DNA from: Scenedesmus sp. PABB004
Lineage: Eukaryota
Length of the DNA: 64,000 nucleotides
NCBI GenBank assembly: GCA_014905635.1
Contig: JABVCE010000033.1
Span: 186,001 to 250,000 of the forward strand
Reading direction: 5' to 3'
How positions within the stretch are numbered: position 1 is the stretch's first letter; every line of letters begins with the position of its first letter. Shown piece by piece: positions 4,024 to 8,160 of the stretch. The translations under genes were made by a program, and so were the position numbers. Below the pieces are notes generated by a model. It saw only the letters and a list, made by a program, of their open reading frames with translations. It was not told the DNA's origin and made no database searches.

Positions 4024-5501
4024 TCAGAGGATGCCCCACTTCATCTCCATGGCGTTTGTGATGCGCGCGAGCGCGTACGCGGCACTGAGCGAGTAGGCGC
4101 TGACCGCGACCTCCTCGTCCACGTAGCTCGCGTCGATCGCGCCGTGCGCAAACGCGCCGACCACAAACACGACCGGCACGCCCTCCGCCAGGTCGCTCTG
4201 CGCGCGGGCGCGGCGCGCGGCGCGCGGCGGCGGCGTGCGGCGGGCGGGCGGGCGGGCGTCGGCGGCGGCGAGCGGAGGGCCTGACCGCTGGGCGCCGGGC
4301 GCCGGGGCGCCGTGTGCGCTGCGCGCCGGCGGCGCGGTCGGCAGCGCGCCGCGGCGGCGGCGGCGCGCCTTGACAAAGTCGTGCATCGGCCGCAGGTTGG
4401 CCTGCACGCTGAAGCCGACGCGGCGCGCATTGGCGGGGAGGTACTTGGTCACGGGGCCCTTCACCACCTTGGTCACCGGTCGCCGACGGACGGGCGGGCG
4501 GGCAGGCGGGCGGGCGCGCGGGCGGGCGAGCGGTCAGCGCGGCGCGTGCGCGGGTGGGGCGGCGGGCAGCCGTGCGGTGCTCCTGCTCACCTTGAGCAGC
4601 TTGTCTGGCCCGTTGGTCGCGCGGATGCTGAGCTTCTGCAGCAGCTGGACCATGAGACCGCAGAAGCGCTTGAAGGTGCGGGGGATGCGGACCTTGGGGT
4701 TGACCTGAGCGCGCGCAGCAGGCGCCAGGCGGGGGAGCGCTCGGCGGCCGGCGAGTGCGCGCTGCGCCTGCTGCCGCGTCTGCTGCCGTGCCTGCTGCCG
4801 CGCCTGCTGTGCCAGCTGCGCCCGCTGGCCCGCCTGCTGCGCCCGCTGGCCCGCCTGCTGCGGCTGCTGGCCCGCCTGCTGCTGCGCCTGCCGCACCTGT
4901 ATGAGCACGTTGCGGCACGTGTGGATGTAGATGCCCTGCGATTGGGGGCGACGGCGCGGCGGGGGTCGCTGGCGAGACCTGACGCGGGTGCAGCTCGCGG
5001 CGTGGCGCCGCTGGCCAGGCGGGCCCGCCACGTGTCGCGCCCCCGCCGCTGCACCTTGACCTTGCCGGCCTTGTTCAGCGGGCTGTCCAGGATCATCAGC
5101 AGCGCCTGCGCGCGCGGCGCGGCGCGGCGCGTCGGCGGGCGGCGGCCGCGCGCTGCCGCCCGCGCCGCGCGCCGCCGCCGCCGCCCGGCGCGCGGCGCGC
5201 GGCGCGCGCCTGGTGCGTGATGTCTGGCCGGAAGAGCGCCGGATCCTTCTTGTGCTTCAGCAGGTAGGTGGCGTGGTCGTCGCAGTTGAGCAGCTGGTAC
5301 GTCTGCAGGGGGCGGGCGCGGCTGCCGAGTCGGCGGCGCCCCGCGCGCGGCGGCGGCGGCGCGCTCAGCTGGCGGGCGCACCTTGCCGACTTGCGCCGCC
5401 TCCAGCTGCGCGCTCTCCAGCACGAAGATCACCTCCCGCGCCGCGTCGGCCTCGCGCGCGGCCTCGTCCGCCTCGGCGGGCGGCGCGAGGCCGCCCACCA
5501 T
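4024..5501 (-). CDS. EMG1: 18S rRNA pseudouridine N1-methyltransferase EMG1/NEP1 (SPOUT family)
   Basis: Spliced: [104 protein letters not shown]. Confidence 0.96.
4765..4895. repeat. Degenerate CTGCTG-based 12-21 bp tandem repeat inside EMG1 intron 4705-4896
   Basis: ctgctgccgcgt/ctgctgccgtgc/ctgctgccgcgc followed by (ctgctgcgcccgctggcccgc)-like units. Confidence 0.75.
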
Positions 5502-5978
5502 CGCAGCGGCGGCCGCGGCTGCCGCTGGCGCGGCGCGCGGCTGCCGGAGCGCGGGCGAGAGGCGCGGCGCGCTCCCGGGCCAAAGACAACGGCCCTGACG
5601 CGACGCGACGGCGGCGCTGGGGCGCTGGGGCCTGCGCGGCGCGCTGCGGGCGCGTCGGGCGCTGGTCGCTGCTGCCGCCGCTCGCGCGACGCCGCTGGTG
5701 GGCGGGGGCTGCGTCTGACCACCGGGGCGTGACGGGCGGACTGCGAGCGAGAGGTGGACGCCGCGAGACCTCAGCGCCGCCGCAGCCCGGGTTCAGGTCA
5801 CGCAACGCGAACGCAGCGAGCGCCGCGCCGCCTCCCCGCCGCCCGGCACAGCGCCGCCCGCCCCGCCCCACACTGCACCCGCTCCATGGACCCGCCCTGC
5901 GCGCTCCGCAAGTGACCAGCGCCGCAAGCGACCAGCGCCGCCGCCACAGCAGCGCGCCGCGCCGAGCGCCGCGTTCAG

Positions 5979-6883
5979 ATGGGGCCGACGGCTGCCGCCA
6001 AGGCGCGCTCGCCGGCGGCCCGGAGTGCCAAAGCCGCTGCCAAGTCGTCGCCGGGCGGGCGGCGCGACACCGCGCCCGCGGCAGACACAGCGAAGCGGGC
6101 CGCGCCGCGCAGCAAGCAGCAGAAGCAGGCGCCGCCGGCGTCGCCGCCGAGCGGCGGCCGGCCCAAGCGCGTGCTCAGGCAGCAACAGGAGCAGCAGCAG
6201 CAGGAGCAGACGCCGGCCAAGAAGCCCGCCGCGGCGCGCGGCCGCTCGCCGGCGCCGCAGCGCCCCGCCGCGCCCACGCCGCGCAAGGCGGCGGCGGGCC
6301 GCGGCCGCGGCGCGCTGCAGCCGCTCGGCTCGCCGGCGGCGGCGGCCGGCTCCGGCGGCCCGGGCGCGCTCAAGACGCACCAGCGCCGCCGCAGCTCCGC
6401 GGCCGCCGCCGCCGCAACGACGCCGGCGGCCGCCGCGCCGCCGCCGCCGCGCGCCCGCGACGGCGGCGCGGCCGGCGCCAAGACGGCGCCCGCGGCGCTG
6501 GGCGGCGCCAAGCGCCGCGCGCGCACCGGCGACGACGACGCCGCGGCGCCGGCGGGCGCGGCCGCGCCGGCGGCGGCCGACGTCGCCAGCCCCGGCGCCC
6601 CCGGCAGCGCGCGCAAGCGCCGCCGCGCGACGATGCCGGCAGGCGCGCCGCACGTGGACGCGGCCGAGGCGAAGTACTGGCGTGACGTCGAGCAGGTGGG
6701 CTGGCGGCGGCGAGCGGCGGCGAGCTGCAGCGGCGCGCGTGCCGCTCTGACTGACCGCTGGCGGCGCTCGCGGCGCTGTCGCTGCCCCCACAGGAGGAGC
6801 TGCTGGTTGAGGACGACAACGGCAGCAGCGAGGAGGGCGGCGCCGACAACGCCGGCAGCGACAGCGACGACGCCGACAGCTGA
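5979..6883 (+). CDS. Disordered basic protein with Sororin-like C-terminal motif (candidate cohesin regulator), 2 exons
   Basis: Exon 1 5979-6695, GT-AG intron 6696-6793, exon 2 6794-6883 give ...EAKYWRDVEQ|EELLVEDDNGSSEE...DS*. Many SP/TP sites, RGALQPL and LKTHQRRR motifs. Confidence 0.65.
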
Positions 6884-7021
6884 CGCGCTGGCGCGCGCTG
6901 CGCTGGGCGGGCGGGGGCGGCGCGCGTGATCGGTGCGGGCGCGTCGGCCGCCGCGGCGAGGAGGCAACCGGTGTTGACCGCGCATCGCCCGCCGCCGTCC
7001 CGCGCTCTGGCCGGCGCTCGC

Positions 7022-8160
7022 TCAGCCGCCCTGCTTGACGTACACGAGCAAAAAGTTGTTGGCCGGCATCCGCACGCAGCTGCAGCCCGCCGCCGGCACG
7101 AGCCCCGCAGCCGTTGCCGCCGCTGAGATGTCTGCGACGTCGCGGTAGCCCCACTCCGGGTCCTGGGCCCGGAGCGTCTCGTCGAACGACCGATTGCTCT
7201 CTGTCGTGAAGCCGCCGTCGACCTGCGGGGCGCCGGCGCCGGGGTCTCGGGCGCCGCGGCCAGCCTGGTTGCCCAGGGCAGCTGGCAGGGCAACTTGCCC
7301 TGCCGCCAGCGCCTCGCCGCCGGTCCCTGGCCACCACCCCCCGCGGCGGGCTGCGCTCCGCCTCCCCGGCGCGGCGCCGCGGCAGCCCAAGGGCGGCGCA
7401 CCTTGAACGGTCCGTAGATGAGGAGTCGCCCGCCCGCGCGCAGCAGGCGCCCCGCGCCGGCGACGAGGCCGAGCGTCACGCGCCAGGGCGAGATGTGCGT
7501 GAGGTTGCACGCGAGCACCGCGGCGCACGACGCCGGCGCGCGCAGCGGCCACGTCTCGGGCGGCGCGGCCGCGTCGAGCACGAGCGGCGGCAGCACGTTG
7601 GGCAGGGCGGCGGCGTAGCCGGCGATGCTGGCAAACAGCTCGGACGTCACGTCGCTCGGCTGCCAGCGCAGCGCGGGCGAGAGCCCGGCCGCAAAATGTG
7701 CGACGTGCTGCCCCGTGCCGGACGCGACCTCGAGCACCAGCCCCTCCGCGTCGGGCGGCAGCTGGCGGCGCAGCTCCTCCAGGATGGGCTGCTTGTTGCG
7801 CTCTGTGCCTCGAGCCAGCGGGGCGGCGGCGGAGCGCGGGGGCCGGTGACGTGCAGCAGCGTGCGCGCCCGCTGCTGCTGCTGCCGCTGCCAGCCGCGGG
7901 CGGGCTGGCGCGAGCACAATGATCATGAGCCAGGACTGCTGCTTCCGAAACCGGCTGCGCAGCGGCTCTGCGCGCCCACCTGCGCTGGGCGAGACCACGG
8001 TCTGCGCCGCGGCGTCGCCGCCTCGCTGCCACGCGTCCCACCCGTAGCCCCCCGCGGACGCCATGCTGATCGGCGCGAGGCGAAGTGAGCCGACAACGCG
8101 CAACGAGCGGCGTGCGGCGAGGCGCCCGGCGGTGGCGGCGCGCTGCGGCAGCAGCAGCAT
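7022..8160 (-). CDS. DUF938 / METTL26-like SAM-dependent methyltransferase
   Basis: ERNKQPILEEL, VLEVASGTGQH, WQPSD, NLTHISPW, LLIYGPFK|VDGGFTTESNRSFDETLR..DPEWGYRD, MPANN. Start at 8160 (transit-like) or 8064. Confidence 0.9.

Follow-up and report, generated by a model that had tools for sequence, protein, structure and literature searches.

A candidate Sororin-like gene with a degenerate, intron-split C-terminal box in Scenedesmus sp. PABB004

A gene in the genome of the green alga Scenedesmus sp. PABB004 probably codes for a Sororin-like cohesin regulator, a stand-alone protein whose C-terminal box is degenerate. Sororin keeps copied chromosomes together. The gene lies in a 64-kb stretch of DNA with a GC content of about 80%, here called the window, and its features are collected in Table 1. 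We filed it as Sororin-like rather than as a member of the family because the two-aromatic pattern of the box, a defining feature, was looked for and is missing; the gene is probably an unusual variant of the known Sororin family. In the available text of two papers, Sororin is described from both fungi and plants (PMC11148194), and the family is said to be widespread and to have existed already in LECA (10.1101/2024.01.07.573240). The surprise is therefore limited, since the family is known and has already been described as broadly eukaryotic.

Table 1. Features of the candidate gene and its neighbours, in window coordinates
Feature	Position	Strand	Remarks
EMG1/NEP1 methyltransferase gene	4024..5501	-	PF03587; head to head with candidate; no functional link shown
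Upstream ATG	5886..5915	+	Short uORF or alternative first exon; donor 5912, acceptor 6112
Exon 1	5979..6695	+	239 codons; low-complexity, basic, Ala/Pro/Gly/Arg-rich; start codon uncertain
CDK-type sites TPAK (6210-6221) and TPRK (6276-6287)	6210..6287	+	Two full sites among nine [ST]P
D-box-like RGALQPLGS	6306..6332	+	Residues 110-118; weakly supported
PDS5-interaction-motif-like LKTHQRRR	6369..6392	+	Residues 131-138; His at aromatic position
K/R patch RKRRR	6612..6626	+	Residues 212-216; 16 residues upstream of box (Y233)
Degenerate Sororin-like box	6675..6811	+	Residues 233-245; split by intron
Predicted intron	6696..6793	+	GT-AG, 98 nt, phase 0; interrupts the box; donor CAG|GT, acceptor CAG|
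Exon 2	6794..6883	+	Second half of box, acidic/Ser tail of about 23-24 residues, stop
DUF938 methyltransferase-like gene, part	7022..7821	-	PF06080; tail to tail with candidate

The predicted protein and its two motifs

The predicted product of 268 amino acids contains 75 Ala, 32 Pro, 28 Gly and 43 Lys plus Arg residues and just two aromatic residues. From this low-complexity composition we infer a disordered protein, in agreement with its description in an earlier, sequence-only reading as disordered and basic. A basic low-complexity body is followed by LKTHQRRR, the K/R patch, the C-terminal box and the acidic tail, an arrangement shared with the Sororins of plants and picoalgae. As in Sororins, a K/R stretch and a linker of 10 to 20 residues precede the box, the short box stands at the C terminus (in the predicted spliced product only), and no other known domain overlaps it: Pfam scans of exon 1, the read-through frame and the exon-2 frame returned 0 families. 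The length (268), the distance from motif to box (102), the K/R patch (5 of 6), the tail (24) and the charge all fall within the range of stand-alone Sororins. For these, 34 non-redundant proteins gave lengths of 179 to 565, K/R patches of 1 to 6 and tails of 1 to 25, and the 18 proteins with a strict motif gave motif-to-box distances of 68 to 111.

The CDK-type sites named in the sequence-only reading are all present. Shuffled sequences reached at least nine [ST]P sites with p = 0.003 and at least two full CDK sites with p = 0.11. Its D-box-like RGALQPL is likewise present and is weakly supported: p was 0.54 for plain RxxL, 0.034 for RxxLxx[LIVM] and 0.004 for a longer pattern, the last two being patterns that we assume to describe D-boxes. 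RGALQPLGS is also unlike [RK]x[PA]Lx[DE]xxN, the form present in 31 of the 50 stand-alone proteins retrieved. This N-terminal form and a V-Y-x-R-R-type motif that many plant Sororins (P0171-P0218) have about 60 to 90 residues ahead of the box were not seen described in the available text of the literature searched. The FGF motif and the KEN box, features of vertebrate Sororin, are absent from the candidate; they are absent from AtSORORIN too and are not needed in plants, according to the available text of PMC11148194.

LKTHQRRR, which had been read as a variant Pds5-type motif, scored 15.2 bits on a profile trained without the candidate, and members left out in turn scored 9.5 to 17.3. The profile comprised 24 motifs, from the 27 of 50 non-redundant proteins that bear one. 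This score lies within the green-lineage range, and the motif may bind PDS5; the vertebrate form K/R-T/S-Y-S-R-K/L has Tyr where the candidate has His. LKTHQRRR is nearly repeated at the N terminus of chlorophyte Haspins, where the motif reads LKTFERRR in the Scenedesmus Haspin and [LIM]KTFQRR in three further proteins. The pattern hydrophobic-K-T-[FYHL]-[QE]-R-R, designed after both had been seen, occurs at two places in the 40-Mb genome (the candidate and Haspin) and once in the reversed control. A loose aromatic PDS5-type pattern occurs at 52 places, the candidate not among them, and at 160 in the reversed control. The KTHQR motif proved a stronger clue to the Sororin-like reading than the box. 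As a separate observation, the textbook form RTYSRKR is present twice, in stretches that resemble each other and lie on separate contigs (L023:6745-6770 and L024:6925-6975, both on the reverse strand); one frame closes directly past the motif and the other has no Pfam match.

Matched by spacing, W234 of the box corresponds to human F241, E238 to E245, E245 to E252, E240 to F247 and V226 to W233. The Trp-for-Phe substitution that had been noted is present at the F241 position; the Glu at the second Phe position had been missed. The two-aromatic hydrophobic pattern (F241/F247 in human, F299/Y305 in Schizosaccharomyces pombe) is thus absent, with W234 followed by Glu240. Phe or Tyr occupies the second aromatic position in 44 of the 48 best-scoring boxes, a set biased by seeds selected for that residue, and the position of W233 is Val in the candidate versus Phe, Tyr or His in 46 of 53 boxes; the near-invariant Asp and Phe/Tyr of the comparison boxes are partly built in by the selection pattern. 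Three green-type Haspin or Haspin-like boxes (P0055, P0100 and P0127) also lack the second aromatic, and its loss therefore has natural precedent. The available text of the published work gives the weight of these positions: the human double mutants F241A/F247A and W233A/E252K lost binding to the RAD21-SMC3 gate (PMC12976308), and S. pombe Sor1 F299A, V302A, D303A and Y305A each failed to complement, with reduced expression (PMC11148194).

On a profile of 35 distinct boxes trained without the candidate, the spliced box scored 14.3 versus -1.5 unspliced. Profile scoring of the spliced C terminus, a check of the kind that the sequence-only reading had suggested, placed it above shuffles and genome background; it also placed it below all 35 canonical boxes, each left out in turn (19.4 to 37.7), and HMMER with a Haspin-box profile did not detect the candidate box. 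Seven of 5,000 local shuffles matched the box score alone, and an acidic tract of scallop Haspin reaches 14.4 by chance. PF25220 (Sororin_C) gave no match on the unspliced candidate pieces or on the genome, the latter result being uninformative because the canonical, intron-split box of Haspin was missed too. A search of PDB sequences with the box profile returned one irrelevant match (E 0.92). An alternative register, which places VDAAE (residues 226 to 230) on the box, was rejected for its lack of aromatic or hydrophobic anchors.

Haspin relatives and the chance background

PF12330 identified a single Haspin locus in the Scenedesmus genome (G000:C36, about 115028-118600; L002:3029-3670, L001), on a contig other than the candidate's. 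In this Haspin a D-box-like stretch, LLADISN, lies N-terminally, the motif LKTFERRR is at residue 21, and about residues 138 to 150 form a canonical Sororin box that is split by a 109-nt phase-0 intron; the closest named relative of its exon is from Tetradesmus obliquus (78%). A Sororin box lies N-terminal to the kinase in 14 of the 120 Haspin relatives listed, many of which are fragments or animal proteins. The box-bearing proteins are P0016 (Raphidocelis), P0029 (Volvox), P0031 (Pleodorina), P0047 (Chara), P0053 and nine without a name, and those with a name are all from green algae. PF25220 matched 3 of the 26 Haspins scanned, with a best E of 1.5e-4, below its cut-off. According to the available text of PMC11148194, Arabidopsis Haspin has a Sororin domain that other organisms' Haspins do not share; the Sororin box and PDS5-type motif of green-algal Haspins extend that remark. 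No algal Sororin or algal Haspin box is named in the available text of the literature searched, and a prior listing of algal members in the supplements of PMC11148194 and 10.1101/2024.01.07.573240 is quite possible. Moth Haspins (P0082, P0104 and P0106) show weak box-like stretches of the DLKAFDLLIE type N-terminal to the kinase (9.6 to 11.8 bits), which could reflect either chance or a degenerate box of insect Haspins.

The candidate has no Haspin-type kinase domain, and since the stop of the DUF938 gene is only 138 nt from its own stop, there is no space for one downstream. It might instead be a kinase-less offshoot of the N-terminal region of Haspin (D-box-like stretch, PDS5 motif and Sororin box) whose box has decayed, in which case it would be mainly a PDS5-binding competitor and not an inherited Sororin orthologue. 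Green Haspin profiles do fit the candidate better than stand-alone profiles (16.9 versus 8.1 for the motif; 10.9 versus 3.2 for a 21-column box), but this comparison is confounded by lineage, as the Haspin set is mostly algal and the stand-alone set mostly from land plants. Candidate residues 112 to 250 are collinear with residues 4 to 155 of the Scenedesmus Haspin at a score of 103, reached by 36 of 1,000 local shuffles; with the motifs masked, however, the similarity disappears (68 versus 75.8 +/- 8.9; 829 of 1,000 shuffles). Both genes have a phase-0 intron within the box, but the two introns lie three codons apart, and the acidic tail and terminal box of the candidate fit stand-alone Sororins. 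We consider such an origin unlikely.

No homologue of exon 1 was found at E <= 10 among 8,000 candidates, and the homologue, profile and metagenome searches retrieved no core-chlorophyte orthologue. When metagenomes were scanned with the final 60 residues encoded by exon 1, there were 599 pattern matches, of which 0 were confirmed, and an atlas search with residues 200 to 239 gave no usable match. Scanning for synteny with EMG1 found three distant loci at 56 to 67% identity, with no box score above 10.3. Compared over its whole length with three picoalgal and two plant proteins, the candidate showed similarity at shuffle level; a collinearity of the mid-protein with picoalgal proteins was rejected, as it shifted when a different aligner was used and its score did not exceed that of shuffles. 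A picoalgal box protein had no match in the Scenedesmus genome.

With the box as query, a profile of 10 Haspin boxes run against 1.84 billion representatives returned 22 proteins. Eight were Haspins that had been collected before, another 6 were Haspins or fragments resembling them, 6 were stand-alone proteins or fragments of such, and the remaining 2, false coiled coils, were dropped. The final box search gave 52 proteins. The named ones are all from land plants, AtSORORIN included, and none is a named core chlorophyte; seven without a name resemble a 188-amino-acid stand-alone protein of Chloropicon roscoffensis (P0137 cluster) with a canonical terminal box, and the W/E variant of the candidate occurs in none. 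These searches are biased against degenerate boxes because they were seeded with canonical words. An atlas search with the Chloropicon C terminus led to a PF25220 cluster at 0.78, as a lead only. Further records like the Chloropicon protein are P0136, P0153, P0198, P0205, P0207 and P0209, with PF25220 scores below cut-off. The sequence-only reading had called the candidate the chlorophyte member of the family; that claim is not supported, given the lack of a core-chlorophyte orthologue, the box without its second aromatic and the canonical stand-alone protein of Chloropicon.

The composite score of motif plus box is 29.5 bits versus 13.7 unspliced, and none of 5,000 whole shuffles and none of 5,000 local shuffles reached it. 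By the same measure 43 box-less Haspins scored at most 21.4, and the 34 stand-alone proteins scored 35.7 to 55.2 (by resubstitution), all above the candidate. Among 230,698 six-frame positions, candidate-level scores occurred only at the candidate's motif, the motif of Haspin and the half box of Haspin. To allow for freedom of intron choice, we enumerated junction peptides in 474 kb, made up of the window, the locus of Haspin, 20 stretches chosen because they contain loose motif matches and 20 unselected stretches; only 2 of 14,520 scored at least 12, namely the Haspin box (30.3) and the candidate box (14.3). From these 474 kb, the 95% bound on chance boxes of at least 14.3 beyond that of Haspin is about 250 per genome. 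A motif score at the level of LKTHQRRR was reached twice in 200 kb of unselected DNA, about 0.001 per in-frame window of 210 residues. If the scores of the candidate itself serve as thresholds, box and motif together are expected by chance at most about 0.3 times per genome, a product that excludes the terminal position, the K/R patch and the tail.

These figures bear on the view that the product is an unrelated nuclear protein, basic and disordered, which matches the two motifs through coincidence or convergence. Each motif is short and imperfect alone, the box score is attainable by chance in acidic tracts, and no profile HMM, Pfam or atlas match was obtained; the available text of 10.1101/2024.01.07.573240 also cautions that Sororin-type motifs are not always unique. 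The joint chance, however, is small, and we regard coincidence as quite unlikely. The Sororin identity first proposed thus survives the shuffle and genome-background tests as a Sororin-like reading, and falls short of membership because the second aromatic is missing.

Gene model and predicted splicing of the box

On the forward strand, joining 5979-6695 with 6794-6883 gives an open frame from the ATG at 5979 to the stop codon at 6881-6883. We reproduced the coordinates and translation of the sequence-only reading, including the C-terminal motif and acidic tail that it had obtained by splicing 6696-6793. Splice sites were scored after training on 16 introns of 79 to 192 nt taken from conserved genes in the neighbourhood; of 19 introns placed by hand, 3 had been dropped for wrong ends. 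The donor at 6696 is the top GT or GC donor in 5800-6900, at 9.5 bits (training range, 6.8 to 12.3). The acceptor at 6793 is the top of 11 AGs in 6740-6950, yet its score is modest (5.0; training range, 3.0 to 9.3), and the alternative AG at 6796 scores 0.1. Two CTGAC branch-like words lie inside the intron, at 6747 and 6751. A codon model built on 1,079 codons of conserved exons of the same genome gave exon 2 +1.50 bits per codon in the spliced frame versus -1.65 in the read-through frame, and gave the intron -0.71, comparable to real introns. By these splice-site scores and codon usage the predicted gene model holds, and the 98-nt intron is probably real. It is very improbable that the intron is not removed as modelled, leaving no box and a 316-amino-acid read-through product or another splice form: although the acceptor scores low within its training range, the core box would score 6.0 instead of 11.5 if the AG three bases on were used, and the intron is a prediction from sequence, the region's top donor, the top downstream acceptor, a typical length and a clean switch of codon-usage frame argue for the model.

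The N terminus is less certain, since the upstream ATG at 5886 reads into the candidate's frame through an intron at 5912-6112; both LKTHQRRR and the box are independent of the choice of start codon. Two further observations concern the surrounding sequence. GC-AG introns are common in the Scenedesmus genome, accounting for 3 of the 16 training introns (window 5106-5209 on the reverse strand, L001:513-652 and L005:1921-2111), and imperfect tandem repeats with CTG/GCC-rich units lie at 4760-4890 of the window, within an intron of EMG1.

Proposed function and comparison with known Sororins and Haspins

The Scenedesmus genome has RAD21, a second kleisin (L004), PDS5 with a YAPDTPY (APDTP) loop and SMC genes, one exon of which we take to be SMC3. 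A family search that found RAD21, PDS5 and SMC gave no first-look candidate for WAPL, which does not imply its absence, and among the ORFs at nine loose-motif matches (some with approximate starts; one Pfam-scanned, with 0 families) none was recognisable by eye as WAPL. Prediction of a complex between PDS5 exon 1 and candidate residues 118 to 149, run without alignments, scored 0.00 and gives no verdict. The sequence-only reading had suggested SMC1/RAD21 for structure prediction; in the available text of PMC10656103 and PMC12976308, Sororin docks on the N-terminal gate of SMC3 and RAD21, not on SMC1.

By analogy with the Sororin family, the protein would be nuclear and disordered. LKTHQRRR would dock on PDS5, in competition with WAPL-type and Haspin motifs, and the C-terminal box would cover the SMC3/RAD21 N-terminal exit gate and hold it shut after replication, until the CDK sites and the possible D-box release and destroy the protein in mitosis. 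Binding to the gate would probably be weaker, or made through other contacts, because the second aromatic is Glu, and the canonical box of Haspin may share the gate-locking job. A broader scheme, unlikely though not negligible, has two Sororin modules in green algae: Haspin, which carries a canonical PDS5 motif plus Sororin box across chlorophytes and streptophyte algae, could combine the H3T3 kinase with an exit-gate lock, and the candidate would be a kinase-less copy of the module, its box missing the second aromatic, that competes for PDS5 and leaves gate locking to Haspin. If so, two activities recently assigned to human Sororin would be divided within one cell. If the Sororin-like reading itself is right, synchronisable green algae would gain a candidate cohesion protector that standard profiles overlook because of its degenerate, intron-split box, and the gene would offer a natural test of the need for an F247-type residue at the SMC3-RAD21 gate.

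Human Sororin (CDCA5) and S. pombe Sor1 share with the candidate the spacing of the box and an aromatic at the F241/F299 position, and the human E245 and E252 are kept (available text of PMC12976308, PMC10656103 and PMC11148194). Unlike in these proteins, the F247/Y305 position is Glu and the W233 position Val in the candidate, which has neither FGF nor KEN. Cohesin binding and WAPL antagonism have been tested for the human and S. pombe proteins, whereas the candidate is known from sequence alone. Several green-algal and plant Haspins resemble it in having [LIM]KTF[QE]RR and a Sororin box about 90 to 260 residues later, and the Scenedesmus Haspin also has an intron inside the box. They differ in their canonical box and C-terminal kinase, whereas the kinase-less candidate ends 23 residues past the box.

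The Chloropicon-type proteins (P0137, P0136, P0153, P0198 and P0207) are chlorophyte proteins of 188 to 237 amino acids that, like the candidate, have an upstream motif (LRVY[ST]PRR in their case), TP/SP sites and a terminal box; unlike it, they have a canonical box (PF25220 E 4e-5 to 4e-4, below cut-off) and almost no tail. AtSORORIN (At3g56250; P0190) and the land-plant Sororins (PF25220; PMC11148194) have the box YFAE[IV]DAFEL, whose F, D and F correspond to W, E and E of the candidate, and an N-terminal D-box form that the candidate lacks; whole-protein similarity is absent. Like the candidate, these plant proteins are short, basic and of low complexity, lack FGF and KEN, and run from a K/R patch through a C-terminal box to an acidic/Ser tail, and many carry a V-Y-x-R-R-type motif about 60 to 110 residues upstream of the box, where the candidate also has an upstream motif.
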